Part shown: positions 14,321-30,287 of the stretch, piece after piece
How positions within the stretch are numbered: the stretch's first letter is position 1
How the letters are laid out: each line of letters starts with the position of its first letter
Source of the DNA: Candidatus Saccharimonadia bacterium
Lineage (GTDB): Bacteria > Patescibacteriota > Saccharimonadia > UBA4664 > JBIOIQ01
Direction of reading: 5' to 3'
Length of the DNA: 64,000 nt
Assembly (NCBI GenBank): GCA_044449985.1
Contig: JBIOIQ010000004.1
Location: 141 to 64,140 of the forward strand
Translations under genes and position numbers: made by a program
The notes under the pieces: generated by a model
Seen by the model: the letters and a program-made list of their open reading frames with translations, nothing else
Databases searched by the model: none
Told to the model about the DNA's origin: nothing

Positions 14321-14394
14321 GGCACCTTGGCGGAGTGGCTACGCAGAGGTCTGCAAAACCTTTTACACCGGTTCGAATCCGGTAGGTGCCTCCA
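14321..14394 (+). tRNA. tRNA-Cys (anticodon GCA)
   Basis: GGCACCTTGGCGGAGTGGCTACGCAGAGGTCTGCAAAACCTTTTACACCGGTTCGAATCCGGTAGGTGCCTCCA. The acceptor stem is GGCACCT/AGGTGCC and the anticodon loop is CTGCAAA. Confidence 0.9.
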
Positions 14395-14423
14395 TAGACT
14401 TGATAAAGACAGGACTTACGGCT

Positions 14424-14816
14424 TTGAGAAGTGTAGTAGTATGTAGCTCTAAACGTTTTAAAGACAATGTCAAAATTTTTTGCGATGAATTACATCGCCT
14501 AGGCGTTACTGTTTATGAACCAAGTATCATAACTCCTATTTCTGAAAGTGAATTTATCCATTCAGAATATATCACCGCAAAAGTATTTAAAGGCCTTACA
14601 CTTGAGCACTTTGAGTGGATTCGAAAAGCGGATGCTTGCTTTATCTTTAACAAAAATGATTACGTCGGCATAAGTACATCCATGGAAATGGCTTTTGCCC
14701 AAGCCTTGGGTAAACCGATATTTGCCCTGTCTCCAAGAACAGGAGATCCATGCCGAGATAGTTTAATTGATAAAACTGCCACAAGCCCAAAAGAGCTTAT
14801 ACGCTTGCTTGTCTAA
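14424..14816 (+). CDS. nucleoside 2-deoxyribosyltransferase-like small protein
   Basis: The ORF-track start at 14301 overlaps tRNA-Cys, so I moved the start to the in-frame TTG at 14424. VVVCSSKRF...ADACFIFNKNDYVGISTSMEMAFAQALGKPIF fits the Rossmann-like NDT pattern. Confidence 0.4.
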   Translation: MRSVVVCSSKRFKDNVKIFCDELHRLGVTVYEPSIITPISESEFIHSEYITAKVFKGLTLEHFEWIRKADACFIFNKNDYVGISTSMEMAFAQALGKPIFALSPRTGDPCRDSLIDKTATSPKELIRLLV

Positions 14817-14839
14817 TATTGGTATAATCTTAATATTCT

Positions 14840-14923
14840 GCCCGGGTGGTGGAACGGTATACACGACGGACTTAAAATCCGTTGCCGCAAGGCTTGTGGG
14901 TTCGAATCCCACCCCGGGCACCA
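14840..14923 (+). tRNA. tRNA-Leu (anticodon TAA)
   Basis: GCCCGGGTGGTGGAACGGTATACACGACGGACTTAAAATCCGTTGCCGCAAGGCTTGTGGGTTCGAATCCCACCCCGGGCACCA has a long variable arm. A TGgTATAAT box lies about 15 nt upstream. Confidence 0.9.
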
Positions 14924-14990: not shown

Positions 14991-16649
14991 TTAAAATGAG
15001 CGTCTGACGTGCTCCATTGACCAATCCCAATCGGCATTGGCTTTTTTGTGGGGATTAAAAATATGGTCGGGATCAAATATATCTTTCGTTTCTTGAAATA
15101 ATTTATAGACTGAGCTGCCATATGCAGCCTCAAGCCATGGCCCTCGAATCATGCCATCATTATGTTCCCCGGACAACACCCCATGGTAGCTTAAGACCAG
15201 CTCATTGGTTTCTTTCATAGCAGGCTGAAGTTTTGCTCGTTCATCTTTTTCTTCCAGCTTCATAAGAGGGATAATATGGAAATTTCCATCACCCATGTGT
15301 CCGGCGATGGTAGCAAAAAGATTATATTTCTTAATGATTTTGCGCATTTTGGGTAAGAATTCTGGGAGATACTTGGGCGGTACTACTAAATCGTCGATAA
15401 ATGGCGCGGTGTGTTTATCTTTGACTTTATTTCTAAGTAAATTAAAGCTCTGTCGGCGCATAATCCAATATTTTTGTGATTTCGCTTCGGTTGGATCTTC
15501 CTCTTCGGCGGTAATCTCATAATAGGCTCTCTTTATGCCCAACTCTTTATGAAGAGCTTTTATTTTCTCTAGGACTTCTGCCTCGGTTTCTCCGTTAAAC
15601 TCAACCATAAGAATAAGTTTCGGGATACCTTTTAATAACATGAATCCGTCCGGGATTAACCCAATCAATAACTTAATAAAAGCTTTTAGTCCAAGCATTT
15701 TTAGAAAATATGGCATAAATCTTATTGACAGCCACAATGTCACATCATCAAATGACTCAAATGTCGCAGGTTTATGCTCAAGTACAACATTAATAACTTC
15801 CCCAAGTTTATCGATGTCTTTTAGAAACAAAACCAACAGTCCTGAGTGGGGCTTAGCTGGCACTAATCGAAATTGTATGTCCGTCACAAACCCTAATGTC
15901 CCCTGAGCACCGACTATAACTTTTGTAAGATCAAACACCCCGCTTTTTCTGTCCCAAACGTCCCAAATATTGTAGCCAGTCGAATTTTTCGTGACATTGG
16001 GTTTAGCAGCTTTTATTTCGTCATAGTGCTCGTCCAGGAGTGCAAAAGTTTTACGATAAATCTCCCCCTCGAACGATGTGAGTTTCATTTTTGCATCAAG
16101 TTCTTTTTTATCAAGTGGTCCCAGAGTATATTCATTGCCGTCAGCCAGTACCATTTTAAGTTCTTCGACAAAGTTTTCAGTTTTACCAAATTCTAACGAT
16201 TTTTCACCGCCGGAATTATTGTTTACCATTCCACCGATCGTACATAAATCTCGGGACGCCGGATAACTCGGCATGAGGGCTTTAAACTTTAATGTCTCTC
16301 TTTCGAAATCTCGGTAAAAAACGCCAGGCTGGGCATGACCAATTTGGGAATTTACAGAGATTATTTGGGTAAAATGACGATTAAAATCAGCGATGATTGA
16401 ATCGTTGATTGCACCTCCGGACATGTCCGTGCCGGCACTTCTCGCTGTGATCGATAAATTTTGATCATTTTTTTTGTGCTTTGTGACAAATTTTACTAAG
16501 TTTTTTACATCTTCAGTTGAAGATGGAAATACTATAACCTGTGGTTTGACTTCAAACAGACTAGCATCATGACTATATTTCTCAAGTGAATCATTTGAAG
16601 TGTCTACTTCGCCCTTGATGATGGATTTAAGATCATCTGCTAAATTCAT
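14991..16649 (-). CDS. FAD-binding oxidoreductase (GlcD / D-lactate dehydrogenase-like)
   Basis: 552-aa ORF. The PCMH-type FAD-binding blocks are ITARSAGTDMSGGAI, TIGGMVNNNSGGEKS and GAQGTLGF. The C-terminus has GHMGDGNFH...SGEHNDG. Confidence 0.8.
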   Translation of the reverse strand: MNLADDLKSIIKGEVDTSNDSLEKYSHDASLFEVKPQVIVFPSSTEDVKNLVKFVTKHKKNDQNLSITARSAGTDMSGGAINDSIIADFNRHFTQIISVNSQIGHAQPGVFYRDFERETLKFKALMPSYPASRDLCTIGGMVNNNSGGEKSLEFGKTENFVEELKMVLADGNEYTLGPLDKKELDAKMKLTSFEGEIYRKTFALLDEHYDEIKAAKPNVTKNSTGYNIWDVWDRKSGVFDLTKVIVGAQGTLGFVTDIQFRLVPAKPHSGLLVLFLKDIDKLGEVINVVLEHKPATFESFDDVTLWLSIRFMPYFLKMLGLKAFIKLLIGLIPDGFMLLKGIPKLILMVEFNGETEAEVLEKIKALHKELGIKRAYYEITAEEEDPTEAKSQKYWIMRRQSFNLLRNKVKDKHTAPFIDDLVVPPKYLPEFLPKMRKIIKKYNLFATIAGHMGDGNFHIIPLMKLEEKDERAKLQPAMKETNELVLSYHGVLSGEHNDGMIRGPWLEAAYGSSVYKLFQETKDIFDPDHIFNPHKKANADWDWSMEHVRRSF

Positions 16650-17040: not shown

Positions 17041-18693
17041 TTAGTTAATAGGTAAATGATCATAAATATGACTTAGGTTTGCGCTCCGATAATCTTTGAC
17101 GAACAATTCATGCATCTGCGCCACCGTTGTATCGACTTTTTTGCCCGGATTAAAAATGTTATGGGGATCAAAAATCGTTTTTATTTCTCTAAATATATTG
17201 ATCATAGCTGGACTATATAATTTATCTAAATAAGGAGTTCGGAGTATACCGTCATTATGTTCGCCAGCGAAGCTCCCGCCTAATTTGGCAACTAGAGCAT
17301 AGAAGTCATTGGCAAGCTTAAGAGCTGCTTCTCGATTTTTCTGAACGCCAACATCGATTAGTGGTAACAGATGGAAATGACCATCTCCGGCATGTCCCCA
17401 TATCCCAGACTCAATGTTATATTTATGGAGTAATTTCGATAAGCAATCTAAAAACTCTGGGATCATAGGCAACGGGACAATAGCATCCTCAATAATTGGA
17501 ATGGCCAGATGCTTAGATTTAGCCTGCCAAATAATCGAGGCGGAATTGCGTCTCATTCTCCAGATCGCTTGTTGCTCTCGAACCTTCGTGCTGATCTTTG
17601 CATCGCTACCATGTGATTTCATTATCTTCAAAGTTTGCCTTGCCTTCACAACCTGTCGAATCTGCGAGAAATCATCAAATTCCACAATTAAGACAATTTT
17701 TGGAAAGGGTGCCGAGATTACATTGTCATATATTCCTGGATATTCCGAGCTAACGAATTTAAGCAAATCGTCATTAATTGACTCCATAACACTTGGATTT
17801 AACCTCTTTAGCTTAATAATAGCTTCAGTGGCATTTCTTATACTGTCAAAATAGCCGAGCACGAGGGTAGTTTTAGCATTATACTGCTCAGTTTTTAAGC
17901 TTATTGAGCTAAGTAACCCGAGGGAACCTTGCGAACCTATAATAAGTTGACCGAGATCAAAGGAGCCATCTTTAGTTTTAACATCCCAAATGGCATAACC
18001 CGAAGTATTTTTTGTTACTTTGGGCCTAGCAGAGCGTATTATTTCCCGCTTTTGATCAATTAGGGCATCAATTTTGCGATAAATTTCACCTTCGAAGGTC
18101 GAGAGTCCTTTTTTTCGAGATAGCTCTCGCCCGTTTAAGCGCCGTGTCTCAATGATTGAACCGTCTGAAAGCACAATTGATAATGCTCGAACGAAGTTTC
18201 TGGTGCTCCCATATTTTAGCGATTTTTCACCTGCAGCGTTGTTTGCCACTGCTCCACCAATAGTTGAGACATCTTGACTACTTGGATACGGGGGTAGATA
18301 TCGTCCATGGCTTTGGAGGATTCTCTGAAGCGTTGTGTAATTGATGCCGGGCTGAACCGTCACAGAGTGTTTTTCCAGTTTTAACATTCGATTCATGTGA
18401 CTCGGAAACGAAAGAATCAGGCCACTTCCGATGGCGCCCCCTCCTAAGTCAGTGCCTTTTCCCCGAGGAGTTATACTGAGCTGTTTTCCGCTCGCAGCCC
18501 GTTCAGCGACAAATTTCACGGTCGTAATAATATCTTGTGTATTAAAAGGGTAAACTACTCCTGTTGGTTCAACCGAGAATATACCAGCATCGTTAGCATA
18601 GTACTTCAAAACTGACGACTCGTCCGTGACGCTGCCAGCCAGATCGCGCTGTAACTCCTCCAGAAAATTCTTCATCAAGATCAATCGTACCAA
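17041..18693 (-). CDS. FAD-binding oxidoreductase (GlcD / D-lactate dehydrogenase-like), paralog of 14991-16649
   Basis: It has the same blocks as the paralog: ITPRGKGTDLGGGAI, TIGGAVANNAAGEKS, GSQGSLGL and GHAGDGHFH...AGEHNDG. Confidence 0.8.
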   Translation of the reverse strand: MVRLILMKNFLEELQRDLAGSVTDESSVLKYYANDAGIFSVEPTGVVYPFNTQDIITTVKFVAERAASGKQLSITPRGKGTDLGGGAIGSGLILSFPSHMNRMLKLEKHSVTVQPGINYTTLQRILQSHGRYLPPYPSSQDVSTIGGAVANNAAGEKSLKYGSTRNFVRALSIVLSDGSIIETRRLNGRELSRKKGLSTFEGEIYRKIDALIDQKREIIRSARPKVTKNTSGYAIWDVKTKDGSFDLGQLIIGSQGSLGLLSSISLKTEQYNAKTTLVLGYFDSIRNATEAIIKLKRLNPSVMESINDDLLKFVSSEYPGIYDNVISAPFPKIVLIVEFDDFSQIRQVVKARQTLKIMKSHGSDAKISTKVREQQAIWRMRRNSASIIWQAKSKHLAIPIIEDAIVPLPMIPEFLDCLSKLLHKYNIESGIWGHAGDGHFHLLPLIDVGVQKNREAALKLANDFYALVAKLGGSFAGEHNDGILRTPYLDKLYSPAMINIFREIKTIFDPHNIFNPGKKVDTTVAQMHELFVKDYRSANLSHIYDHLPIN

Positions 18694-18715: not shown

Positions 18716-19912
18716 TTAGTTTGGGGGGTTTAACACCTGAAGTTGGTTCCAAGGGATGCCATTGAGAGCACTGTAATCCGGCTGACCATTAAAAGCCGCC
18801 GTAATTGGATCTGTGCCGGTATGCCCTGTATAGGCCCAATCCCTGATATCTTCGCCAACCAAGGCCACCGCACCAGAAGTATCCGAGACAAACATGCCGT
18901 ATTTTTGTAAAGCGATAGCCACCATTTTTCCATAGGGCGTGAGAGTAAGTGAATTGACGTTGACACTTGGATCTAATCGATACCAGGTCCCTTCAGGTAC
19001 CGCGTCAGCGGCGTTAGTCCAGCCGTCGCATCGATCAGCTGGCGCCACAAAACATGGCGTCAGAGAGGTATCAACAAGTTGTACTGCCATAGCATGATTA
19101 ATTGATCCCGATTGTATATCAGCTTCCGTAACAGTACTTGCCAGATAGGATAAACCAGTGGCATTTTCACCATATGGATTTGGAAAAACTCCGTTTGCAG
19201 TACTCATGTTTGTGATTTCACCACCCCAGCAAGCCGTCCAATTTCCCCCATTATTTTCAGCATCCCAAAATTCCCACTCTGATTGCGATGATGGTTGATA
19301 AATAATCATTCCGTGATCGGTACCAGTAGCCGAGTAGGCTCCCGCTGGAATTGGAACCGCATTGATTTGTGCTTGCAAACCAGCGTAGACGCCACCGGAA
19401 CAATCAGATCCTGTCCCAGATGTTACTTTAACTGTCGATTGCCCTGATGAAACGGTAAATATGGGAATGCTAAAAGCGGAATCTTGGACGGTAAAGGTGC
19501 CATAATTTGTTTGATATTGGTGAACCAAATTAGCTACCAATGTCGCCGAATTGGCCGCAACCGTGCCGGTACTTGCAAGAGGATTATCCCAAAAGCTAGT
19601 TGGATAAGGACCAACACCTGAACTCGTGACACTCCCCCAATTTGTCGCAAGTATTGATAAATCAAGAATATTAACGACGCCGTCGCCGTTAAAATCCCCT
19701 TGCGCCCAGGTTGCTCCAGTGGCCCCCCAATTGCTAGCAAGTATTGAAAGATCAGTTATGTTTACAACTCCATCACCATTGGCATCTCCTGCAATATTGG
19801 CAGCGTGCGTGCCAAAACGCACATAAACACCGATCGCTATAACGAAAGCAATCATAATAATACCGCCCGCCCAATTGCGAGATGGTGATATTAAAGGATT
19901 ATTGCTCGACAT
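18716..19912 (-). CDS. exported protein with N-terminal type-I dockerin pair and unknown C-terminal domain
   Basis: The signal peptide ends at THA/AN. It is followed by GDANGDGVVNITDLSILASNWG...QGDFNGDGVVNILDLSILATNWG, two Ca-binding dockerin segments. The C-terminal ~300 aa is unassigned. Confidence 0.6.
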   Translation of the reverse strand: MSSNNPLISPSRNWAGGIIMIAFVIAIGVYVRFGTHAANIAGDANGDGVVNITDLSILASNWGATGATWAQGDFNGDGVVNILDLSILATNWGSVTSSGVGPYPTSFWDNPLASTGTVAANSATLVANLVHQYQTNYGTFTVQDSAFSIPIFTVSSGQSTVKVTSGTGSDCSGGVYAGLQAQINAVPIPAGAYSATGTDHGMIIYQPSSQSEWEFWDAENNGGNWTACWGGEITNMSTANGVFPNPYGENATGLSYLASTVTEADIQSGSINHAMAVQLVDTSLTPCFVAPADRCDGWTNAADAVPEGTWYRLDPSVNVNSLTLTPYGKMVAIALQKYGMFVSDTSGAVALVGEDIRDWAYTGHTGTDPITAAFNGQPDYSALNGIPWNQLQVLNPPN

Positions 19913-20027: not shown

Positions 20028-20113
20028 GGGCGAGTGGTGAAATGGTATACACGCTAGTTTCAGATACTAGTGGCCGCAAGGTCGTGGAGGTTCAAGTCCT
20101 CTCTCGCCCACCA
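20028..20113 (+). tRNA. tRNA-Leu (anticodon CAG)
   Basis: GGGCGAGTGGTGAAATGGTATACACGCTAGTTTCAGATACTAGTGGCCGCAAGGTCGTGGAGGTTCAAGTCCTCTCTCGCCCACCA has a long variable arm and an encoded CCA end. Confidence 0.9.
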
Positions 20114-20123
20114 AGTGATTATT

Positions 20124-20147
20124 GAGGCTTTGCAGGGCCTCGTTTTT
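20124..20147 (+). terminator. intrinsic terminator after tRNA-Leu(CAG)
   Basis: The hairpin GAGGC-TTTGCAGG-GCCTC is followed by GTTTTTG. Confidence 0.55.
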
Positions 20148-20271
20148 GTATTTACTCGTATAACACTCTCTCTGCACAATATAGAATTATAAGTTCTACT
20201 ATTTACAGTATTCGTGAAATATTGTATTATTGTGCGGCTCAAACTCGTGAGCACTCTAAAAAAGGAGCTGT

Positions 20272-21087
20272 GTGTCTGACGACCAACCGGATTTAGCTTT
20301 GATTGAAGAAATCGAAGCAACCAACCAGTTCAAAGAAAAACATGGACGCTACGTTCACTTTGTTCTGGAACACGGAGTTGACCTCTATCCATCAGAGCCC
20401 GAACCGGACTACGATGAATATGTCTATCGATACTTGTCAGATCCACCAAGCCATTTGGCGACAGCAACAGAGGAGGTGCGAATCGAAGCAGCCATCGAGG
20501 CATGGACCCTAGCGGTCTACTCTCGAGAGTATCGTATAGGCAATGCAGTCGTCGTAAGAATTAGGCTTGCAGCCTTTGCCACCCATCGATGCATGCTCGA
20601 CCATGCGTGCGAGACCCTTTCAAACGACAGTCATCTGCTCTCAACCATGCGAGCCCAAACTCGTATGAGGGTAATTGAAGAGCTTTGGGTCGAGCATCAA
20701 TGGCGAGAGCCACTTATAGCCCTCGTGGAGGCTGAATTCCCTGGTCCAGAGCTGACCCTGGCCAACATAGAGGCGTTCGAATCGAGGCGCCCATCTTTCC
20801 TCGCGGAAGCTCACGAACGACTAAAGATGCTTCACGACCTCACGGAAATCCTTGAAGGCATGCTGTGGGTTCAAGGTCAGATAGTTGCAGAGAAAGAACA
20901 GCAACTTCTGATGGTCCTCGCTGGCCAGGCTGCATTACTGTCTGCGCGAGGAGGGGGTCACGACCATTTAGCAATCGCCCTTCATATGCAGGCACGTGAG
21001 CTGATTGGAGCAAATGCAGAACAACCCGAACACCCTGTTTGGGCCGAGATTCTCACTAAGTTTTTCCCCATACCAGCTATGGGTTAG
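20272..21087 (+). CDS. hypothetical protein (271 aa), G+C-rich islet gene 1
   Basis: GTG start 6 nt after AAGGAG. The protein is acidic and helical, with no motif I recognise. Confidence 0.45.
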   Translation: MSDDQPDLALIEEIEATNQFKEKHGRYVHFVLEHGVDLYPSEPEPDYDEYVYRYLSDPPSHLATATEEVRIEAAIEAWTLAVYSREYRIGNAVVVRIRLAAFATHRCMLDHACETLSNDSHLLSTMRAQTRMRVIEELWVEHQWREPLIALVEAEFPGPELTLANIEAFESRRPSFLAEAHERLKMLHDLTEILEGMLWVQGQIVAEKEQQLLMVLAGQAALLSARGGGHDHLAIALHMQARELIGANAEQPEHPVWAEILTKFFPIPAMG

Positions 21088-21163
21088 TTCTACTAAGGGA
21101 GCCAACGTGCTAACCTAGTAGGTGCGGTAAGCGAGTACGTTAACAACCTATTTTTCAGAGGAG

Positions 21164-21490
21164 GTGGAGGCAACGGAACATCTAAACGCAACGGTTCAGG
21201 CTGTTTTACCCGGGCCCCATGGTCCGTACGTAGTTGCCACAGCAGTGGGCCTGTTTGGTTCAATCACTTTTGCATTGAGCGAACCAGTCTGGCTCGAAAC
21301 TGACACACCTGAACGGGGCGCGATGGTGGTCTTAAGTGACTTGCGCCGTAAGCAAGCGGGATGGCGGGCGCTTTCAGCTCGTTATTTCCGACCAGAAGAT
21401 GAGCAATCCAGCATCCAGCAACTAGAGAATGGAGAATTGAGCATTGAGCAACGACACCGTAACGTCCAATCGGGAGGTTCGCCCCCCTAG
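21164..21490 (+). CDS. hypothetical protein (108 aa), islet gene 2
   Basis: The ORF lies behind a GAGGAGG box. The start position is uncertain. Confidence 0.3.
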   Translation: MEATEHLNATVQAVLPGPHGPYVVATAVGLFGSITFALSEPVWLETDTPERGAMVVLSDLRRKQAGWRALSARYFRPEDEQSSIQQLENGELSIEQRHRNVQSGGSPP

Positions 21491-21782
21491 CAAAGCTCAG
21501 GTCAGGTTTGCTACTCAGTACCTGGGCTTAGAGCTCCCTCACGGAGCCGCTATGTGGGAAGTCACCCGACTCATCAAGCGTGAGGTACGAAGGAGGGGTC
21601 GCGAGACCCTTCGTGCTCTCGATCCGACGAAATACTATCTGGTAGAGCATCCAAAGTATGGACTCTGCGAGATCGACCGAATCGGGGAGCAAACGTTGAA
21701 GGTCACGTTACTAGTAATCGATACGAATCGCAAGATCGTCATCGATGCTATGTTCCTAGCGGACTGCAAGTTGCACGACTAA
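21444..21782 (+). CDS. hypothetical protein (112 aa), islet gene 3
   Basis: The ORF overlaps gene 2 by 47 nt in another frame. The start is uncertain. Confidence 0.35.
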   Translation: MSNDTVTSNREVRPPSKAQVRFATQYLGLELPHGAAMWEVTRLIKREVRRRGRETLRALDPTKYYLVEHPKYGLCEIDRIGEQTLKVTLLVIDTNRKIVIDAMFLADCKLHD

Positions 21783-21806
21783 CCATGTCGGCCTGATGAC
21801 CCTGCG

Positions 21807-21859
21807 AGGGGCACTGTCGTTCATTCGAGCGATAGTGCCCCTCCGGGGTTGTTTTTTTT
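21807..21859 (+). terminator. intrinsic terminator closing the islet
   Basis: AGGGGCACTGTCG...CGATAGTGCCCCT forms a 13-bp stem with one G-U pair. It is followed by GGGGTTGTTTTTTTT. Confidence 0.7.
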
Positions 21860-21923
21860 ATCAAGCAAAATTGAGTTTGTACCAAATCCCTAACCCCACC
21901 TACGTGCTCCACCAACTTAGGTT

Positions 21924-21948
21924 CGCGTGAGTTAAATTAACTCACGCG
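21924..21948. repeat. perfect 12-1-12 palindrome CGCGTGAGTTAA-A-TTAACTCACGCG
   Basis: Read directly from the sequence. No U-run follows it on either strand. It lies about 40 bp beyond the last gene of the surface locus. Confidence 0.8.
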
Positions 21949-21990
21949 ATCACCCATAAAACTTCGCAACCCAAATTCAAATATTAATGT

Positions 21991-23142
21991 TTAAAAGTAT
22001 CCCGCTGCAACTATAGTTAAGGTATCAGCATAATCAGTTGCGGCAGGTGTGATTCCTGCAATATCCGCTCTCTCTAAGAAGACATATCCGTCGCCGTTTG
22101 AGTCCCCAGTTGAGGAGCCGAAGGGGCGGAGTTGTGTTGGATCAAGTACACCCGCTTTTGTACCAGTTGTTGAGTCATAAGCTGGATCAGCAGTTCCGGT
22201 GCCTATTTGGCCCCCACCACCCTGAGAAACCGAACCCACTGCAAATCCATAGTCTTCTGATCCGGTTGTTAAAGTATGCGCTGCAGTTCCAAGGGAATTT
22301 GTGGTGTTATTTGCAACTGTGTAGTTAGCAATGGTTGAATGGAGAGCACCATGTTCATTAGCTGGACTTGAACCTGAATCAGTTACTCCTTTATTATTCG
22401 CATCTTCAACAAAGCAGGCATAGCCGGAGGCAGCATTGGTTTGCACAGTTGCAGTTAGTGTAACAGAGCTGACTGTAGCTGAAGGAGAGAGGTTCGAGCT
22501 AAAAGCTTGGGAATTTCCAGACAAAGTGAAAGTAAACGTGGGCGGAACAATGGCTGACACCGTAATCTGATCGCTAGTTATTGCGGCCGATGCCCAGTTT
22601 GAAGTATATTCGGCTGTAGATCCTGGATATGCACCATGAGCGAGAGTGGTCGAACCCTGAAGGCTAGGATTTGCTGCACTCGGATTTGAAACCGCGGCTG
22701 AATTTGTCCAGTTAAAGCAATACGGACCAGTACTTCCAGGCTGTGACGCGCCAGTAACATTAAAGTTTACTTGCTGACCAACTACCCCGGTACCACCAGA
22801 AGGCGCTGCGACACCAGTCCATGCTGAAGCGCCAGTCGGCCAATCCGGCTGTGAGGTAGTGTTGATTGTCCAATTACCATTTGTAGTACTGACCGTATAA
22901 CCAGCAGGGAATACGACTGAAAGTGTGGTTGCGGTCGTGCCCGGATTTGTTGAAAACTCTGAACAGATGGTTCCTGTTGTAGCAGTCGATGTCTGCATGC
23001 GGTTAAAGATAACTTGGGTGTATGCAAATGTTGGCGTTGCATCGGCAGTCCCAATTAAAAACGGCAATATTGTTTGAGCCAATAATGCGAAGATAAAGAC
23101 TAATTTAACTTTTCGGAAAATTTTTTGATTTTTTGCAAACAT
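21991..23142 (-). CDS. exported surface protein, family P copy 2 (383 aa)
   Basis: The signal peptide ends at GTADA/TP. By my hand count 315 of 383 residues are identical to 38251-39402, with no indels. The C-terminal half has the TFTFTLSG...GYACFVED...EDYGFAV pattern shared with family B. Confidence 0.65.
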   Translation of the reverse strand: MFAKNQKIFRKVKLVFIFALLAQTILPFLIGTADATPTFAYTQVIFNRMQTSTATTGTICSEFSTNPGTTATTLSVVFPAGYTVSTTNGNWTINTTSQPDWPTGASAWTGVAAPSGGTGVVGQQVNFNVTGASQPGSTGPYCFNWTNSAAVSNPSAANPSLQGSTTLAHGAYPGSTAEYTSNWASAAITSDQITVSAIVPPTFTFTLSGNSQAFSSNLSPSATVSSVTLTATVQTNAASGYACFVEDANNKGVTDSGSSPANEHGALHSTIANYTVANNTTNSLGTAAHTLTTGSEDYGFAVGSVSQGGGGQIGTGTADPAYDSTTGTKAGVLDPTQLRPFGSSTGDSNGDGYVFLERADIAGITPAATDYADTLTIVAAGYF

Positions 23143-23178
23143 TTTTGTTTAAGAATTATTTTTATTCTTATACGCAGG

Positions 23179-23207
23179 ATAATAATTCTTATGTTTTAAA
23201 ATGTCAA
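23179..23207 (-). promoter_or_regulatory. sigma70-type promoter for family P copy 2
   Basis: The minus strand reads AAAAAAAG-TC-TTGACA, a 17-nt spacer, then TATTAT, about 35 nt upstream of the ATG at 23142. Confidence 0.55.
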
Positions 23208-23261
23208 GACTTTTTTTGCACAAACAGAGTAAACTTTTTCTGCTATGCCACCAATGATTTC

Positions 23262-23720
23262 CTATAATCCAGGGATGGCAGGTTGTGTTGAAGCAAAACT
23301 GACTGGACCGACCGCGACTATCCTGTCTATTCCTGGTCTATAAATGATCGCTAATTGATTTTTCTCATAGATCAAAATCTCGTCCCCGTTTTTAGCCTCT
23401 TTAAAAAACGGGGTGTTTAACTTATTTACGTCCGTAATAGTTGCGAGTGCTGGTACTTCGTTAGTAGGCAGTAAATAGTGACGAGCAACTTTAGCTTCCA
23501 CAAGCTCTAGTTTTCCCAAACCTGAATTAGCTGGATGACGATATTTTGCGTAATAGAGCGCTCCAATAACCAAGGTGATTCCAATAACTCCAAGGATAAG
23601 AAATTTATAATTTTGTTTTAAAGCTATAAATATTTGATTTTTTTTCTTACTTGAAACTAAAGCAGGATTTTTTATCCTTATATCACTAATAACTTGATGT
23701 TTAGTAGTGGGCTCAGACAT
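23262..23720 (-). CDS. small N-terminally anchored protein (152 aa)
   Basis: I placed the start at MSEPTTKH (23720), 1 nt after the upstream stop. It has a single TM helix (FLILGVIGITLVIGALYYA). Confidence 0.45.
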   Translation of the reverse strand: MSEPTTKHQVISDIRIKNPALVSSKKKNQIFIALKQNYKFLILGVIGITLVIGALYYAKYRHPANSGLGKLELVEAKVARHYLLPTNEVPALATITDVNKLNTPFFKEAKNGDEILIYEKNQLAIIYRPGIDRIVAVGPVSFASTQPAIPGL

Positions 23721-23721
23721 G

Positions 23722-25854
23722 TTAATTATCACTCTCAAGGTACCAGAAGTTAAATCCAAGAATTGCAGCTGCAGCGGTAGCATTATTTGTGATCCAAGTG
23801 AGAGGTGCTAGAAATGTCGTGGTACCAGGTATGTTGGCAGATACTGAGCCGGTAGTTTGATTGCCCGTACTTTCATCAGTAATTCGATATGAGATAGTAG
23901 AACCGTTTACAGGACAATACATTACCATCTCGAAAAGATCAGTTGTATTTACGGGAAAATTTGCACCAAGACCGGTGACGGTCGGGGCGGTACCCGTTAT
24001 GTTATTTACGAAATTCCAATTTCCGGTATTTGCATTTATGGCCATGCCAATTTTGCCTGGCGTTGCATTAGTAGTCGGGTCAACATTGGTTGGGTTTGCA
24101 ACTGAGTCTGCTAGTCCAACAAACGCTCGATTGCCAGATTGAAGGGTATTTAGGCCGAATCGAGTCACGTAAAAAAATCCACCTAACCCAGCAGCATTGC
24201 CTCGCCAAACTTGCAAAACGCCTTGACGCTGGTAAGCGACGGTACCGGCAGTTGTGCCGGAACTAAACTCGAGTAGTCTCACTGAAGTAAATATATTTGT
24301 GCTTGCAGGAGCAGGAGCAGTACAGGTTCCCGCTCCAGTAGAGGTCGAGCCAAAACCAGTCGCTCCTGTGCTGCAGTTAGCAGTGCCGTTTGGTTCACTA
24401 AATGAAATTCGATTAAATCCAAGTCCAGGTTGAAATGCCGTGTTCTGATCACTAGGCCCTAACCATTCTGGAAGAATTCTGCCTGCAACTGTTTTGGCAT
24501 AAATTCGTAAATTATTCGCGGCAGGTGAGGCAGGATCGCTACTCTGAGTCGCTATCTGAATCGCACCTGATTGAATATCGACACCAATATTCCAACCAGT
24601 GCCAACTTCAACAGCAGTATTTGTACCTCCATTTAAAGAGGTCGGACCAGTGAGGACTATGCCATAACTGGTAACGCCGGTCGCAGCGCCACTAGTATTA
24701 GCAACAATACTTACTCCGTTCCAGGTGCCCCCGCTAGTTGTTCCTGGAGTATAATCTACATCTATTCCGCTGGCATTTACGGCTGCACTTCCACCTACAA
24801 AGTTAATTTCAAGCCCATTCGCATTGTTCGTGGTTACAGCTTGCCCCGCGTTTGAAATGCTGACAATGTCTGCAGTTGGAGGAGCAGCCGCACTAATGCT
24901 GATTGTTCCTCCCGCAGTTGTATTGATGGTTGAGCCGTTATTATAAGCTTGTTGTAGAGTTTCGCTACAGCTTACGAAGATCAGCTGACTGGCTGTCGAT
25001 GCTCCGGACTGCAAACACTGACTGGTAGAAGGACCAGCAATTGGCAGTGTCAGGGTGTAGTTGCCTGTAAGAGAACCCGATGAATTTAGAGTCACCGCAT
25101 AATTTCCGGATGTCGCCGTATTGAATAAAAGTTGTCCATCTAACCCAGAACTACCAGTAGTGCCGAGTAATACTTGATTACCGGAGGTATCTACATTCAA
25201 AATTGATTCAGTTCCGCCGGCGTTTTTGACCTGGAAGGCATTTGCAGAAGTTGTATCAATTGCATTTGTACCAGTCCAAGTTTGTGAGCTAGAAAGTTGG
25301 CCAAAAGAAACAGAATCGATTCCATCAAGTGTATCGGCATTTATGGCATACGGAGAGCTTGCCAATGACTGTCTAGGCGTCATTGCCCCTTCAGTAAAAC
25401 TGGCACAAGCATTCGTATTACAAGTCGCCGTTGCAGGAGTTGGCAGCTCAACTTCGAGATAAAGTGGAAATGTCCCACTAAAAAGACTTGGGCTCAGGGC
25501 TGGATCCCCCTGCGTCGTATCGCCAAATTGGATATTAAAAAGTCCATTGGCCACTGCAACCCGATAATCTGAAGTACCATAGACTCGATCACCTTCCCAG
25601 ACATTTGAGCCACCAGTCAGGGCGTTCCAGAGTCTAAACTTAATGTTATACGAACCATCTGGAAGTATATTGCCATTATTGTCAGTCAGACGCCCTTGAA
25701 AGTTTATTTTATAGGGAACAGTTTGCGACGCAATTGCGGCGTTATTTAGTCGAATTTGTCCACCCAAAAGAGATGTTGCTAAAACGAGTGTGCTAAGAGT
25801 CGTCCAGAAAATCCAAACGAAACTCCGCTTCAATCGGTCGTTCATCCACAACAC
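23722..25854 (-). CDS. large exported fibre-like protein (710 aa), tail-fibre-like N-terminal region
   Basis: It has a signal anchor followed by VPYKINFQGRLTDNNGNILPDGSYNIKFRLWNA..GGSNVWEGD...VAVANGLFNIQFGD...PRQSLASSPYAINADTLDG. This pattern is common at the base of phage-tail-fibre-like bacterial proteins. The middle is Gly/Thr/Ser-rich and the C-terminal ~200 aa is globular. Confidence 0.5.
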   Translation of the reverse strand: MLWMNDRLKRSFVWIFWTTLSTLVLATSLLGGQIRLNNAAIASQTVPYKINFQGRLTDNNGNILPDGSYNIKFRLWNALTGGSNVWEGDRVYGTSDYRVAVANGLFNIQFGDTTQGDPALSPSLFSGTFPLYLEVELPTPATATCNTNACASFTEGAMTPRQSLASSPYAINADTLDGIDSVSFGQLSSSQTWTGTNAIDTTSANAFQVKNAGGTESILNVDTSGNQVLLGTTGSSGLDGQLLFNTATSGNYAVTLNSSGSLTGNYTLTLPIAGPSTSQCLQSGASTASQLIFVSCSETLQQAYNNGSTINTTAGGTISISAAAPPTADIVSISNAGQAVTTNNANGLEINFVGGSAAVNASGIDVDYTPGTTSGGTWNGVSIVANTSGAATGVTSYGIVLTGPTSLNGGTNTAVEVGTGWNIGVDIQSGAIQIATQSSDPASPAANNLRIYAKTVAGRILPEWLGPSDQNTAFQPGLGFNRISFSEPNGTANCSTGATGFGSTSTGAGTCTAPAPASTNIFTSVRLLEFSSGTTAGTVAYQRQGVLQVWRGNAAGLGGFFYVTRFGLNTLQSGNRAFVGLADSVANPTNVDPTTNATPGKIGMAINANTGNWNFVNNITGTAPTVTGLGANFPVNTTDLFEMVMYCPVNGSTISYRITDESTGNQTTGSVSANIPGTTTFLAPLTWITNNATAAAAILGFNFWYLESDN

Positions 25855-25933: not shown

Positions 25934-26803
25934 TTAACTTTTGCTTTTTAGACGAGTCCAAAAGAATAAGCGTAGAAGTATTAAAAACCCAATTCCATAC
26001 AAGACTTCTCGAAAATAACCGGTAATTGCAAAGATCCAGATAACTTTCGTTTTATGCGTGTATAAATCTTGAAACTGAAGCGGAATAATCCCTAAATAAC
26101 TTCCCGACTTTGAAAAAGAAAAAACTCTTGAGCTTCCGGGCATAACTAAGCCAAATTGCAATTGGGTGGCAGCTCCCAATGGTAGCACTCTCAAATTAAT
26201 ATTTGGATCATAGGCCACCCCGCCGGAGGAGCTCGATGCAGTATTCGAATACTCAAATTTTCCATTAAGAGCATTGCCAAATTGCCATACAGGAACGCTT
26301 AGATTACTAATACTACCGGTTTTAGTGGTACTGGGCCCGTTATTTAATAGCAGTAAAGTCCCGACCCTGGCGCTTTCGGAAATAACTGTACCTTGGGCTG
26401 TGGCATTGTCCGGAACTGTCTCAAAAAAAAGCACAGCATAAATTCCCCCTTTCGGAAGTACTTGCGGGTCAACCGTAAAAGCTACTCGAATTGCTTCACG
26501 CGGTCCAAGCTCAAACGTTCCTAAAGAAATCTGGATGCCTTTTGTGAGTGTTGGATCATCATAAAACTGCAGATCCCCATCAAGGTTGTATTGACGAAAA
26601 GCTTTTATCGACGATGCAACGGTAACCATCGAATCAGTGGGATTTGAGACATCAACAAACCCAAGTTTTGGATTATTATCGCTAAAACCTTGTTCATACT
26701 TGAGGGGATCAATCTTTAAGGCCGGTACCTCAGCATGTGCCGGCAGAGCAGCTAATATACCCAACCCTAGAGCGATTGGTAAGAAATATAATAGTTTTCT
26801 CAT
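25934..26803 (-). CDS. DUF916-like exported protein with C-terminal TM anchor, family C copy 3
   Basis: The signal peptide ends at AHA/EV. VDVSNPTDSMVTV and LPKGGIYAVLFFE resemble the family blocks. The C-terminus has a TM helix plus a basic tail (RLFFWTRLKSKS). The start overlaps the LamG gene by 4 nt. Confidence 0.5.
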   Translation of the reverse strand: MRKLLYFLPIALGLGILAALPAHAEVPALKIDPLKYEQGFSDNNPKLGFVDVSNPTDSMVTVASSIKAFRQYNLDGDLQFYDDPTLTKGIQISLGTFELGPREAIRVAFTVDPQVLPKGGIYAVLFFETVPDNATAQGTVISESARVGTLLLLNNGPSTTKTGSISNLSVPVWQFGNALNGKFEYSNTASSSSGGVAYDPNINLRVLPLGAATQLQFGLVMPGSSRVFSFSKSGSYLGIIPLQFQDLYTHKTKVIWIFAITGYFREVLYGIGFLILLRLFFWTRLKSKS

Positions 26804-28167
26804 GGTTTTAGGGTGGCAGTAAAGAAGACCGTATTTGAATAGCTGCCTTGTTTTTGAGCCGGGCCAACATCAGCTCTAAACTGGATCGTGGTCTTTTCGG
26901 CGGCACCGCCGGAAAGACCAGTCCTTGTGTGGAACACTGTTGGAACGGTTGGTATGGCCGCATAGTCATAGTTGGGGCTGGTGCCCCATTTACCCTCAAC
27001 GCCAACTCCACCAGTGACAGTCATCCCCAGACCGGTTGTCACGCCCTCACTCCAAGCAGCCGGTGAAGTAATGGTTCCGGAAATCGCTGGAATCGTCGTG
27101 ATATTATCAGAATTCGTTAAGTCTTTATTCTCTTGAATGGCCAGATTATAGCCACCAGCATCAGTCCGAACAATGGCATCGAGAGAATTATTTTGTGAGG
27201 TCCCGGGTGTTATATTAGGCAGAACAGCAGCGGACCGCGCGCCGGTGTTTTCCGCACTGAAAAACGCCGCTGCTTCGGCAGAACTCAATGTCCGGTTAAA
27301 TACCTTAATTTCATCGATTGTGCCAGAAAAGAAGTTACTTGTTGGGGCGCTGGTCCAACCTGAAAGCTGGTCGTCTCCAATTCTCCAGTAACCAGAACCC
27401 GAAATACTAGTAGTGTTAGCATTGGGCGTCCCGTCCGACTTTCCATCAACATATAGATTCATGCCGGTGCTTCCCATAGAAGCGATTACCTGATGAAATA
27501 CACCATCGTTATATGCAAGTGTCGAATTTACTACTGCACCGCTCGCACCGGCTTCAAAATGAAGCTTTCCATCATTAGACATATAAACTTGTCGATCATG
27601 AGTGGTTGAATTACCAGTCTGCGCACTTCCGAATCCGATTAGTTGTCCCCCCGTAATGGTAGAAGTTTTAAACCACATTGAAAATGAATAACTCGTTAAA
27701 CCCGACTCGGAATTGGTCGCACCCAGGTAATCGGTCGTGCCGTTTAATGACACACCGTCACCGATTTTACCGCTGACCCAACTTGGCGAGCCCTCAAATA
27801 AAGCATTATTAAGACTTGCACTCATGTCGTAAGCCAGTTTTCCAATCCCAGTATCTAGGGGATAATATTCATTTATTCCCGACGGCAAAACAGTTAGTTG
27901 AATGGAATGAAAAAGCTCTGAAACATAGCCTTGCGAAAGTTTATAACTTTGAGATGAACCTGAGCCAACGGCAGCTTCGCCCCCGGCATCGACCATTTTA
28001 TAATCTGTCGAGCTTCCAACCCCACCAAAACTGTTGGCAACGTTCGGATCAAGCCGATAATGGGTACTGGTAAGAACAGTCGCGAGCGTTCCAGCTGGCA
28101 ACAAGCAGACGATGACAGCAATCGCTATCAAACGGATTCCGCGCTCCACATTAAGCATTAGCACCAT
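26800..28167 (-). CDS. exported LamG / concanavalin-A-like lectin domain protein (455 aa)
   Basis: GSPSWVSGKIGDGVSLNGTTDYL...YSFSMWFKT...DRQVYMSNDGKLHFEAG...GVFHQVIASMGSTGMNLYVDG...FSGTIDEIKVFNRTLS fits the Laminin_G_3 pattern. Confidence 0.7.
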   Translation of the reverse strand: MVLMLNVERGIRLIAIAVIVCLLPAGTLATVLTSTHYRLDPNVANSFGGVGSSTDYKMVDAGGEAAVGSGSSQSYKLSQGYVSELFHSIQLTVLPSGINEYYPLDTGIGKLAYDMSASLNNALFEGSPSWVSGKIGDGVSLNGTTDYLGATNSESGLTSYSFSMWFKTSTITGGQLIGFGSAQTGNSTTHDRQVYMSNDGKLHFEAGASGAVVNSTLAYNDGVFHQVIASMGSTGMNLYVDGKSDGTPNANTTSISGSGYWRIGDDQLSGWTSAPTSNFFSGTIDEIKVFNRTLSSAEAAAFFSAENTGARSAAVLPNITPGTSQNNSLDAIVRTDAGGYNLAIQENKDLTNSDNITTIPAISGTITSPAAWSEGVTTGLGMTVTGGVGVEGKWGTSPNYDYAAIPTVPTVFHTRTGLSGGAAEKTTIQFRADVGPAQKQGSYSNTVFFTATLKP

Positions 28168-28217: not shown

Positions 28218-29150
28218 TTAGCCTGAGCCGAATAGCGCTTTAAACGCTCGCTTTAAGCGCTTACGACCCTTCCAAATAATTATATACAGGGCGATCAACA
28301 CTACCAGGATAATGCCGAGTAATTTATAAGGAATTACGGTAAACGAAGTCGAGGCAGTTAAGGTTTGGGTGGCACCATTTTTCAGAACTATGGTAGCCGT
28401 ATAGCGACCAAATAATAGATGTTTAGACCAAGGTGTATCAATTTTACGAATTGCTGTAGGAATAACATTTTCAGGCACTATTGAGATGGTAGCCGCCGTA
28501 CCACCAATCATATTTTTTACGGTAATTATCCCGGTTGGTTTTTCATGAACATTACCAAGATCGGCGATGCGAGTCGAAAAGACTATTGGTCCGTATTGGT
28601 AAAAGGTTTTGTCCGACGAAAAACTTGCTACTGACAACTTCTCGTAGGCCGGTCCGTTAATTCGTAGAAATATCAACGTCGCAAGTTGTTGCTTAACTGC
28701 AGCGCCAGATTGACCGCTCGGTAATACTCCGGGATTAGTATGAAAAACCAAGGATCCATATCGGCCACCAGGTTCGGCATTGAGAGGAACTGCAATGGAG
28801 AAACTCACATCAGTAGTGCCCTTAGCCGGCACCACAATATCGCCAGTCGTAACAATGAACCAAGGAGCTAAAGAATAAAGGTTGTCTTGTGTGGTCAAGT
28901 CAATTTGACCTTCTTCACCTCGAGCGACAAAATTATTCCGATCAACCGTTAAACTAAGAGGTTGATCAGTTAGATTGATCAGCTTCACTGAACTTGCGAC
29001 TGTTTGACCGGGATTTGCAGCTAAATCAAATGCCGGTGGTGAAACGGCAAAACCAAGTGATGTCGCAGCATTTGCAGACTTTGCAAGGAAGCCAATAGCA
29101 ACAATAAAACTTGCGCATAGGATAAAGAGGGGCCTAACTCGAACGCTCAA
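28218..29150 (-). CDS. DUF916-like exported protein with C-terminal TM anchor, family C copy 2
   Basis: The signal peptide ends at ANA/AT. GFAVSPPAFDLAANPGQTVASSVKLINLTDQPLSLTV and VPLNAEPGGRYGSLVFHT match the family blocks. The C-terminus is a TM helix plus KGRKRLKR. Confidence 0.55.
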   Translation of the reverse strand: MSVRVRPLFILCASFIVAIGFLAKSANAATSLGFAVSPPAFDLAANPGQTVASSVKLINLTDQPLSLTVDRNNFVARGEEGQIDLTTQDNLYSLAPWFIVTTGDIVVPAKGTTDVSFSIAVPLNAEPGGRYGSLVFHTNPGVLPSGQSGAAVKQQLATLIFLRINGPAYEKLSVASFSSDKTFYQYGPIVFSTRIADLGNVHEKPTGIITVKNMIGGTAATISIVPENVIPTAIRKIDTPWSKHLLFGRYTATIVLKNGATQTLTASTSFTVIPYKLLGIILVVLIALYIIIWKGRKRLKRAFKALFGSG

Positions 29151-29189: not shown

Positions 29190-30287
29190 TTAGTAAACCG
29201 GAGTACAGGTGTAAATAATAGTGGTAGTGTAAGTGCCGGGTTTAGTGGTGCCGGAGATCCCAACTTGATGACCAATTGACACGGTTTTTGTCGTGAGACC
29301 AGTTGAGCTATAGGAAACTTCGGCATTGGTCGTAGTCATGGCGGCCCAGAGATCACTCTGGAAACGATTGACGGCCCCGTTGGCAACGTTTAAAGCAAAA
29401 TCCGAAGTTGTATAACCATAAGCTTCGGTACCGGCAGCCGAAAAAGCTGTCGGAGAGTTATTAGTACCGGTCCAGTCGGCGATTGTATTAGATCCGGAAG
29501 TTGGTTTACCGGTGTAGCGGACGTAAACGGTATAGCCATTGGCGGCATTGGTAGCAATCGAAAGTGACTGACAGACCAAACCGTTTGACGCCGTGGTAAC
29601 ACTGCCGAAGGGTATGGTGGTTGAGGTAGAGGTACCGGTTGAAGTTGACGCACCAGAATTACAGGTGCCTCCAGAAGCAACTCCGTTAACTGTAAAACTC
29701 ATCGTTGGGTTAACAGTTAAAGAGAGATTTGAGCCGTTGGTGTTGATATAAGTCACTACCACACTATCAACCGGGCTTGAGCTACAGTTCGTATTATTGT
29801 AAGTGCTAAAACTTAGATAATAGGCGGTGTCAGCAACTGAGCTATTAGTGATACCTGCCATAATAAAGGTCGCGCCGGTCAGGGTCGATGGAGTAATCCC
29901 GGAAGCGTTTGTATATTGAATTGTATTAGCCGTATCCGTTACGCTCCAGCCAGTGCCCGAGTCGTTAACGTACGTCGAAGTTGCAGCGGTAATGGTTGCG
30001 GAAGCGGCGGTAAAGCCGGTTGGAGTAGTCAGTGTCGTCGGCGAAGTTGAAAAGGTCGCCTGTATACATTTAATTGTGCCGTTCGTAACACTACTTGCAG
30101 TAACGGTATAGTTAACCGACGCGGTTGAAGGTATAGGGTTGGATAACGCGACTGAAGCAGTTGTAAGAGTAACAGCGTTAGCAACTGAGATATTCAGAGT
30201 TAAGAGACCAACTAGGCTAATCCAAGCAACCCAAATACGAGTTAGTCTAGCCCGTCGACTCAAATCGTTTGAATCTTTGTATTTCAC
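29190..30287 (-). CDS. exported surface subunit, family B copy 4 (365 aa)
   Basis: GTG start behind GAGGTG. It has a signal peptide, ASVALSNPIPS, five conserved Cys, and a C-terminus of GTYTTTIIYTCTPVY. Confidence 0.6.
   Translation of the reverse strand: MKYKDSNDLSRRARLTRIWVAWISLVGLLTLNISVANAVTLTTASVALSNPIPSTASVNYTVTASSVTNGTIKCIQATFSTSPTTLTTPTGFTAASATITAATSTYVNDSGTGWSVTDTANTIQYTNASGITPSTLTGATFIMAGITNSSVADTAYYLSFSTYNNTNCSSSPVDSVVVTYINTNGSNLSLTVNPTMSFTVNGVASGGTCNSGASTSTGTSTSTTIPFGSVTTASNGLVCQSLSIATNAANGYTVYVRYTGKPTSGSNTIADWTGTNNSPTAFSAAGTEAYGYTTSDFALNVANGAVNRFQSDLWAAMTTTNAEVSYSSTGLTTKTVSIGHQVGISGTTKPGTYTTTIIYTCTPVY

Follow-up and report, generated by a model that had tools for sequence, protein, structure and literature searches.

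Diverged paralogs of a predicted Pam-type pilin on either side of a pilus-like locus in a Saccharimonadia bacterium

Why would a bacterium with a reduced genome keep long-diverged copies of one gene on both sides of a single locus, and what do these copies encode? The question is raised by a 64-kb stretch of DNA (hereafter, the window) from a metagenome-assembled genome (MAG) of a Candidatus Saccharimonadia bacterium, a representative of the Candidate Phyla Radiation (CPR). Two minus-strand genes of the window, P1 (21991-23142; ACHQUB_01780) and P2 (38251-39402; ACHQUB_01850), each encode a protein of 383 amino acids and enclose thirteen further genes. A first-pass annotation, made from the sequence alone, proposed that they encode an abundant sheath, S-layer-like or major fibre protein, possibly maintained in two antigenically distinct versions. 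Judging from sequences and structural models, we put the probability at about two in three that P1 and P2 belong to a set of three or more functional, diverged paralogs encoding a pilin of the Pam type. The Pam system itself has already been described in a 2026 preprint, and the P family would be a new, more remote member of it; the expansion into several paralogs, with orphan copies among them, is a modest new observation.

Divergence and selection in the P copies

P1 and P2 are real, old and well-preserved copies of one gene. Their products, which are 100% identical to ACHQUB_01780 and ACHQUB_01850 of the same MAG, align in BLASTP over 383 positions with 315 identities (82%), 357 positives and 0 gaps, and repeat analysis places the two genes exactly 16,260 bp apart, so that the equal lengths, the residue count and the spacing given in the first-pass annotation are confirmed. 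The homology begins at the stop codon, the 3' flanks being non-homologous. Flanking repeats and remnants of insertion sequences or other mobile elements were sought around the P copies and none were found; the homology is confined to the coding sequence and the promoter core. A third paralog, P3 (ACHQUB_03555), is encoded on a different, 15.6-kb contig of the same MAG. The trio is roughly equidistant (amino acid identity of 84% for P2-P3, 82% for P1-P2 and 79% for P1-P3) and forms a lineage-specific group, the nearest sequences outside which are 66-72% identical, within a family that comprises 1,076 clusters at 50% identity (E <= 1e-3). The divergence of P1 from P2 (18% of amino acids) is smaller than that between proteins of the window and their orthologs at a related locus, L085 (about 30-50%), which is consistent with an origin of the P copies after the split from the L085 lineage.

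At the DNA level, 844 of 1152 positions (73.3%) are identical, and the copies differ at 55 first, 28 second and 225 of the 383 third codon positions. By the Nei-Gojobori method (NG86), the nonsynonymous distance (dN) is 0.112, the synonymous sites are saturated (pS = 0.74-0.77, with a formal synonymous distance, dS, of about 3), and the dN/dS ratio over this saturated dS is about 0.04 or lower. Saturated synonymous sites together with a low dN/dS imply an old duplication followed by strong purifying selection on both copies, as had been concluded from the many third-position changes; the dN/dS ratio, then proposed as a check, is far from 1.

The differences between the two proteins were initially thought to lie mostly within the first 20 residues. 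Their density does peak there, but the segment accounts for only 13 of the 68, and 53 are found in the mature protein, which differs between the copies at about 15% of residues. The differences favour columns that are variable across the family (p = 0.003) and show no excess in loops (14.5% against 15.8%), and the linker strand discussed below (residues 192-207) has a single substitution. DNA identity is even along the gene (67-80% per 90-nt window), which argues against recent gene conversion between P1 and P2, and a search along the alignment revealed no conversion tract beyond a marginal identical run of 27 nt. This run (23050-23076 in P1 and 39310-39336 in P2, both on the minus strand, located in the DNA alignment) encodes QTILPFLIG, residues 23-31, in the core of the signal peptide. 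It was singled out early as a possible sign of constraint on the mRNA or of gene conversion; the run does exist, but its length barely exceeds that expected by chance (P = 0.06 with sites shuffled, 0.015 with codons shuffled and 0.018 with the amino acid pattern fixed), and orthologs do not conserve it at the nucleotide level. With its marginal significance and this lack of conservation, the run was rejected as a conserved mRNA element.

A different picture is presented by a tandem pair of P-family genes in a related locus (L001, positions 10001-12536; OY970378.1, a complete Saccharimonadia MAG), which encode proteins of 394 and 405 amino acids. This pair is a gene-conversion mosaic, in which identity reaches 100% over 299 nt and is nearly complete throughout the C-terminal domain, but is only 60-75% in the 5' half, which encodes the N-terminal domain. 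The assembly domain is homogenised and the other domain diverges, a pattern that is lacking in the P1/P2 pair. A 26-nt identical run also found in the L001 pair was set aside as uninformative, since the pair is 83% identical and contains far longer identical tracts.

Fold, family and relation to the Pam pilus

By inspection and hydropathy, the N-termini of P1 and P2 consist of a basic N-region and a hydrophobic segment (residues 8-35) that ends in ADA or AEA before TPTF, and cleavage of the predicted signal peptide probably takes place behind this ADA/AEA, near residue 35. P has a size of ~38.9 kDa and contains one conserved pair of cysteines and one extra cysteine. The AlphaFold2 model of P1 (predicted local distance difference test score, pLDDT, of 83.6) has two beta-sandwich domains, with the strands of the N-terminal domain at residues 39-188, a coil and linker at 189-207 that includes a strand at 203-207, and the C-terminal domain at 223-381. 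In Foldseek searches, the model matches tandem immunoglobulin (Ig)-like adhesins and, for single domains, the chaperone-usher pilins CfaB (TM-score 0.48), Saf and PapK/G. Conservation within the P family peaks at two places, the linker (residues 192-206; column entropy 0.99) and the C-terminal strand region (360-374; 0.82).

The link from P to pilins runs through the Q family, four minus-strand paralogs located between P1 and P2 that are 31-56% identical in all-versus-all BLAST. Two of these, Q1 (29190-30287; 365 amino acids) and Q2 (30384-31466; 360 amino acids; 56% identical to Q1), match the full 148 positions of the NCBIfam model NF058581 (CPR_Pam_pilin_C, Pam pilus system pilin subunit; curated cutoff of 55 bits), with E = 1.2e-8 and E = 8.5e-6, respectively. 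Q3 (35691-36800; 369 amino acids) matches the same model with E = 2.5e-4, and Q4 (36963-38096; 377 amino acids) is a pilin-like protein 49% identical to Q3; both have six cysteines and a signal peptide. When a profile of 28 P-family members was aligned with a profile of 23 Q-family members, hhalign gave 95.6% and E = 1.3e-8 over 161 columns, the alignment running from the linker strand to the C-terminus.

The same locus encodes three members of a chaperone-like family (Ch), each with a signal peptide and, at the C-terminus, a transmembrane helix, and all on the minus strand: Ch1 (28218-29150; 310 amino acids, helix at residues 275-307), its paralog Ch2 (34655-35671; 338 amino acids, helix at 294-331) and m289 (25934-26803; helix at 267-285), the last of which is joined to the family by hhalign (93%, E = 3.5e-7). 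The model of Ch1 (pLDDT 83) consists of two beta-sandwich domains and a C-terminal helix. Its top Foldseek matches are the Enterococcus faecium protein EfmWxLIP1 (9i1y/9i25, E = 6e-12), followed by CfaA, CsuC, Caf1M, FaeE, FimC and RbmA, so that Ch1 is predicted to be a membrane-anchored chaperone of the WxLIP/PapD type. Both Ch1 and Ch2 lie just below the threshold of the Pfam model WxLIP_PGBD (27.2 bits for Ch2, with a cutoff of 27.3), and several of their homologs carry PF06030.

The Pam pilus was described in Ca. Mycosynbacter amalyticus, where thin filaments composed of PamA and PamB, which co-occur within single filaments, were seen by electron cryomicroscopy (cryo-EM); the two pilins polymerise by donation of a linker strand to the next subunit, their conservation is highest on the donor strand and its groove, and they come 2nd and 9th in protein abundance in the organism (Troman et al., bioRxiv 2026, doi 10.64898/2026.03.03.709456, including Table S1). 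The pam operon, which adjoins ATP synthase genes in many CPR genomes, also encodes the PapD-like chaperones PamC and PamD with a C-terminal transmembrane helix, the RbmA-like anchor PamR, the tip subunit PamT and a further pilin, PamE (Troman et al. 2026). The pili are regarded as the means by which parasitic CPR bacteria make their first host contact.

How closely the P family resembles this system was assessed by scanning GTDB species-representative genomes with the P profile, which yielded 79 loci, M. amalyticus not being among those returned, that were then annotated with hidden Markov models (HMMs) of P, Q and Ch. In most of them, one to three Ch genes directly follow P on the same strand, and a weakly P-like gene (P') precedes it. 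The module of L001 lies directly after ATP synthase genes and is headed by a gene for a 295-aa PamR homolog (NF058578, CPR_pilus_PamR; 259 bits, cutoff 300 bits, E = 5e-77). The PamR-like gene, a small gene, P' and P recur in L082 and L083, the loci of the closest P relatives; the P' proteins have only weak matches to the N-terminal part of PamT. We call the series of PamR-like gene, small gene, P', P and chaperone-like genes the canonical P module. It matches the published pam operon in gene content and in its ATP synthase neighbourhood, and P appears to be its principal pilin family, the comparison assigning it to none of PamA, PamB and PamE in particular.

Further likenesses to the Pam system are the host class, Saccharimonadia; the predicted Sec signal peptide of P and its two modelled beta-sandwich domains, with a single conserved strand between them; the peaks of conservation on the linker strand and the C-terminal domain; the presence of several pilin paralogs per locus; the PapD-like chaperones of the window, with their C-terminal transmembrane helix; and size (~38.9 kDa for P, 38.7 kDa for PamB). 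P modules of relatives, as described above, carry the PamR homolog and adjoin ATP synthase. P1 and P2 differ in that they stand alone, detached from PamR, P' and chaperone genes, at the flanks of a Q-type locus. Paralog expansion, orphan copies and gene conversion are not discussed in the preprint (doi 10.64898/2026.03.03.709456).

Several observations weigh against the assignment of P1 and P2 to the Pam-type pilins. P reaches no curated Pam model: P1, P2 and five other P-family members had no match to NF058581 at E <= 1, and P lacks any Pfam or NCBIfam match even at this threshold. The matches of Q1-Q3 to NF058581 fall under the curated 55-bit cutoff (35 bits for Q1). Since the Q matches are sub-cutoff and P has none, the membership of P in the Pam system rests on a two-step homology chain and on context, and its likeness to PamA, PamB and PamE is judged from the published description of these pilins. 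The cysteine pattern differs, PamA having two pairs and PamB three. No homolog of the PamR-like, small and P' genes or of the P-type chaperone is present within the 64-kb window, nor is there a PamT homolog, and no open reading frame (ORF) of the window resembles ATP synthase, according to the ORF list and the families scanned; as the genes of their own module are absent, P1 and P2 would need machinery encoded elsewhere or the Q-type chaperones. The even spread of the differences over strands and loops does not speak specifically for diversification of the surface or of antigens, and filament formation and expression in the present organism are predicted from its genes.

P1, Q1 and the 580-aa protein of the locus had no direct sequence match among PDB chains, and the P and Q family profiles had none in the PDB. 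The C-terminus of P (...TIVAAGYF) has neither an LPXTG motif nor a transmembrane tail, no sortase or usher family match was found among the locus proteins scanned, and family scans revealed no sheath or S-layer domain in P and no context that would support one. The sheath and S-layer proposals were therefore dropped. The best supported of the products first considered is a major fibre protein, because P is predicted to be a secreted protein of two beta-sandwich domains, is homologous to Q and has WxLIP/PapD-like chaperones encoded nearby.

The prominence of WxLIP among the matches of Ch1 calls for another explanation to be weighed, in which P would be a monomeric, non-polymerising surface protein held by WxLIP-like membrane proteins, with P1 and P2 as alternative adhesins. 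In Firmicutes, the commonest WxL cluster consists of genes for two WxL proteins and one WxLIP (Hassan et al. 2023, PMC10599100), and the WxLIP protein (DUF916-DUF3324) is proposed to hold WxL on the cell surface, with a beta-hairpin strand of its own inserted into it. The Ch proteins share with WxLIP two Ig-like domains and a C-terminal transmembrane helix; WxLIP is their best structural match, including the complex of a WxLIP bound to a long WxL (9i25), and their best, though weak, sequence match in the PDB. The near-threshold WxLIP_PGBD scores and PF06030 in several homologs point the same way, and in the window, as in the WxL clusters, two client genes are followed by one WxLIP-like gene (Q-Q-Ch). 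However, P and Q proteins have no Pfam WxL match (none for the Q family even at E <= 1), P1 lacks a W-x-L tripeptide, and Q matches the curated model of the Pam pilin C-terminal domain. In relatives, the P module includes a clear PamR homolog and adjoins ATP synthase, like the pam operon for which filaments have been seen by cryo-EM, and conservation in P peaks on the inter-domain strand, as expected of a strand that is donated. WxL proteins are described as bound to peptidoglycan and not as forming filaments, and their host phylum is different. On balance, non-polymerising adhesins appear to us distinctly improbable. The structural proximity of the window chaperones to Firmicute WxLIP hints that Pam pili and WxL clusters may be linked in evolution. 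The Pam preprint does not mention WxL (doi 10.64898/2026.03.03.709456).

The comparison with chaperone-usher pili (Pap, Fim, CFA/I, Csu, Caf1) is looser. Their subunits, too, are Ig-like, and the C-terminal domain of P1 weakly resembles CfaB, Saf and PapK; the model of Ch1 gives target-normalised TM-scores of about 0.5 with CfaA, CsuC, Caf1M, FimC and FaeE. In contrast to those systems, a Pam-type locus involves no usher or outer membrane and its chaperones are membrane-anchored, the P subunits have two domains and would donate an internal linker rather than an N-terminal extension, and there is no sequence homology.

Pilins of the Pam type thus remain our preferred identification of P. If it is correct, a widespread Saccharimonadia family that is unannotated in the records examined would be placed in the Pam system through context and remote homology, and one reduced genome would keep at least three diverged and independently transcribed copies, of which two lie apart from the assembly genes. 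The picture of how a Pam-type pilus works would be unchanged; the gain is in annotation and in leads on subunit variation, along with the gene-conversion mosaic of L001, the WxLIP connection, and the cohesin and dockerin proteins in a CPR pilus locus described below.

The named P-family matches belong to Saccharimonadia/Patescibacteria, apart from a few records titled as Gammaproteobacteria, Pseudomonadales or Bacillota MAGs. Canonical P modules were likewise found on contigs titled Gammaproteobacteria, Pseudomonadales, Bdellovibrionales or Bacillota (L031, L047, L049, L050, L053, L056, L063, L066, L070, L071, L077 and L080). These contigs are probably mis-binned or mislabelled Saccharimonadia, a point that matters for the view that only CPR bacteria have the system. 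Far longer proteins, of 784-1641 amino acids, can likewise end in a P-family module (P0398, P0412, P0416 and P0417), and long minus-strand ORFs with P-HMM matches lie beside some canonical modules (L050:15175-17838, L066:17477-20302, L070:14539-16695 and L077:9648-12365). Such proteins could be large adhesins joined to the filament through a pilin module.

Transcription signals and the meaning of several copies

Both copies are preceded, as the first-pass annotation had it, by an A-tract, a TTGACA box and a 17-nt spacer. At P1, the promoter-like site (23179-23217, minus strand) comprises the A-tract at 23217-23211, the -35 box TTGACA at 23207-23202, the spacer and the -10 box TATTAT at 23184-23179, and in a consensus scan this TTGACA-17-TATTAT arrangement (11/12) is the best sigma-70-like match in the region of 21.5-41.4 kb. 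The site of P2 (39441-39480, minus strand) has the A-tract at 39480-39474, a perfect -35 box TTGACA at 39469-39464, the same spacer length and, at 39446-39441, the -10 box GAATAT, which is weak (3/6) and preceded by TGn; the scan did not call this site. The element AAAAAAGT(T)CTTGACAT is found upstream of P1 and P2 only within the 64 kb, 0 occurrences being expected by chance. A shared upstream element listed apart from the promoters, ATGTCAAGA(A)CTTTTTTT, is indeed common to both genes, but it is the reverse complement of the A-tract with the TTGACA -35 box, and a single promoter feature had been counted twice. Outside this core, the upstream regions of P1 and P2 are unrelated.

At the 3' ends, RNA folding revealed a strong hairpin after P1 (21918-21956, minus strand; a 12-bp perfect stem inside a longer stem; -26.1 kcal/mol, z = -5.5) and an intrinsic terminator after P2 (38203-38230, minus strand; GCGGCCC-GAAU-GGGUCGC followed by U5; -16.3 kcal/mol, z = -3.9). 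A terminator had been ascribed to P1; its hairpin bears this out in part but lacks a U-tract, and the canonical terminator belongs to P2. Because each gene has its own promoter-like site and a hairpin or terminator at its 3' end, P1 and P2 each look like a monocistronic unit.

In other genomes, 16 P genes were inspected for the same signals. An A-tract followed by TTGACA or TTGCCA is present upstream of five of the 16, and a canonical terminator directly follows most of them, even where chaperone genes come next; these sites and terminators suggest that P is a separately and strongly transcribed major subunit. A parallel is offered by papA, where the gene of the major subunit is likewise driven by a strong promoter of its own and closed by a terminator before the assembly genes. 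In most of the canonical modules inspected (among L003-L014, L041, L082, L083 and other loci), a strong intrinsic terminator directly follows P and the chaperone genes lie within 40-100 nt, an arrangement that suggests attenuation setting a high ratio of pilin to chaperone.

Taken as Pam-type pilins, the P proteins would be produced and assembled as follows. Each gene would be transcribed alone, from the promoter with the A-tract and TTGACA box to the 3' hairpin or terminator, and its product would be exported by Sec and cleaved at the predicted site. The fold of the mature protein would comprise a beta-sandwich at the N-terminus and, connected to it by the conserved strand VPPTFTFTLSG, an Ig-like domain at the C-terminus, and, by analogy with PamA and PamB, the linker strand (residues 192-207) would be donated into the C-terminal domain of a neighbouring subunit in a donor-strand exchange. 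Chaperones of the WxLIP/PapD-like type, anchored in the cytoplasmic membrane, would hold P and aid assembly, and the outcome would be a thin surface filament for host contact. The paralogs would then be alternative, independently regulated subunits of the filament whose assembly elements are nearly unchanged.

The signals bear directly on the possibility that one P copy is decaying or silent, perhaps a cassette that donates sequence as pilS does for pilE. The weak -10 box of P2 would fit such a role, as would the position of both P1 and P2 away from any P-type chaperone gene and the occurrence of gene conversion elsewhere in the family (L001). Both ORFs, however, are intact and of full length, with start codon and signal peptide, and keep every residue that is invariant in the family; with dS saturated, dN/dS is about 0.04; the promoter core and a 3' hairpin are present at both copies; and there is no conversion tract beyond the marginal 27 nt. 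We give a silent copy hardly any credence.

Diverged copies of filament-subunit genes that share conserved assembly regions are familiar from multiple flagellins, from pilE/pilS and from tandem fimbrial genes, and gene conversion between the P copies of L001 is a point of likeness to these. The P genes differ from such cases in that all copies have their own promoter and signal peptide, which argues against a silent cassette among them, and there is no sign of a switching mechanism.

P1 and P2 might instead be equivalent copies kept for the dosage of an abundant structural protein, with differences that reflect neutral drift. Several of the results given above agree with this: the low dN/dS, the identical lengths and conserved assembly motifs, the position of the differences at family-variable columns with an even spread over strands and loops, and the common promoter core, to which can be added the abundance of Pam pilins in M. 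amalyticus. Yet synonymous changes have reached saturation and no sign of concerted evolution is seen, whereas duplicates kept for dosage are often homogenised, as is the C-terminal domain in the L001 pair. The -10 boxes, the 5' untranslated regions and the terminators differ, so differential regulation is possible, and three copies at 79-84% identity are all kept in a reduced CPR genome. Dosage as the explanation of the copies seems to us unlikely.

Since the linker strand and the C-terminal region are conserved, the P paralogs could co-assemble or substitute for one another. In a bolder form of the Pam-type reading, which we consider possible but doubtful, several long-diverged major-pilin paralogs with interchangeable donor strand and acceptor domain would be mixed in one filament and provide a repertoire of surfaces; selection and occasional gene conversion would hold the assembly domain constant and the rest would diverge, as in the L001 pair. 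Such a repertoire would serve contact with different hosts or the evasion of recognition by hosts or phages, and P1 and P2 would be cassettes at the edges of a second pilus locus, of the Q type.

The locus between P1 and P2

The thirteen genes between P1 and P2 are all on the minus strand and follow one another in the order of transcription as Q4, Q3, Ch2, dock307, s178, b580, Q2, Q1, Ch1, LamG455, m289, b710 and s173. As the window contains no homologs of the PamR-like, small and P' genes, P1 and P2 are regarded as orphan copies, and neither is adjacent to a Ch gene. In the first-pass annotation, they were taken to bracket the locus, and they do flank it here. The arrangement is absent, however, from three related Q-type loci, and the third paralog lies elsewhere. 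In L085, the genes from Q4 to b710 have orthologs that are 45-71% identical and identically ordered, but the place upstream of the Q4 ortholog, where P2 would be, is taken by an unrelated cytoplasmic gene, and the contig ends before the P1 side; in OY970378.1, no P gene lies within 10 kb of the Q-type locus (L086), the P genes being more than 840 kb away; and no P gene is found in the 21 kb of the Q-type locus L081. In view of its absence from the related loci examined, the simplest view of the bracket is that the placement of the two orphan copies is specific to this lineage, and it is probably not meaningful as a feature of design.

Between the two Q-Q-Ch modules lie three genes whose L085 orthologs are in the same order: dock307 (33843-34766, minus strand), encoding a surface protein with dockerin and Ig domains, s178 (33243-33779, minus strand), encoding a cohesin-like surface protein, and b580 (31504-33246, minus strand), encoding an Ig-like surface protein of 580 amino acids with a transmembrane segment near its C-terminus. 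Dockerin type I domains are found in three secreted proteins of the window, the 307-aa product of dock307 and proteins of 398 and 405 amino acids (18716-19912 and 52544-53761). The gene of the 178-aa cohesin-like protein is part of the pilus locus, and the cohesin/dockerin pair is kept in the syntenic L085 and L086; in this CPR bacterium, these proteins may make up a tethering system of the cohesin-dockerin kind.

Downstream of Ch1, LamG455 (26800-28167, minus strand) encodes a secreted lectin-domain protein (Pfam Laminin_G_3, E = 1.5e-19), a candidate adhesin with a pilin-like strand at its end. Its interpretation as a tip adhesin was dropped, its match to the Q C-terminal domain not being significant (E = 0.054). 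Two genes for uncharacterised secreted or membrane proteins without Pfam or NCBIfam matches, b710 (23722-25854, minus strand), whose ortholog lies at the end of the L085 contig, and s173 (23262-23783, minus strand), are located between the Q-type locus and P1.

On its other side, the 3' end of P1 adjoins a stretch of ~1.7 kb with higher GC content (0.50, compared with 0.43-0.46), which comes after a tRNA-Leu(CAG) gene (20028-20113); within the interval of 20028-21990, this stretch contains three plus-strand ORFs without family matches and a plus-strand terminator (21837-21849). Farther away, two adjacent genes encode FAD-linked oxidase paralogs of 552 and 550 amino acids that are 35% identical (14991-16649 and 17041-18693), and a cluster of five tRNA genes (13239-14923) adjoins this pair.

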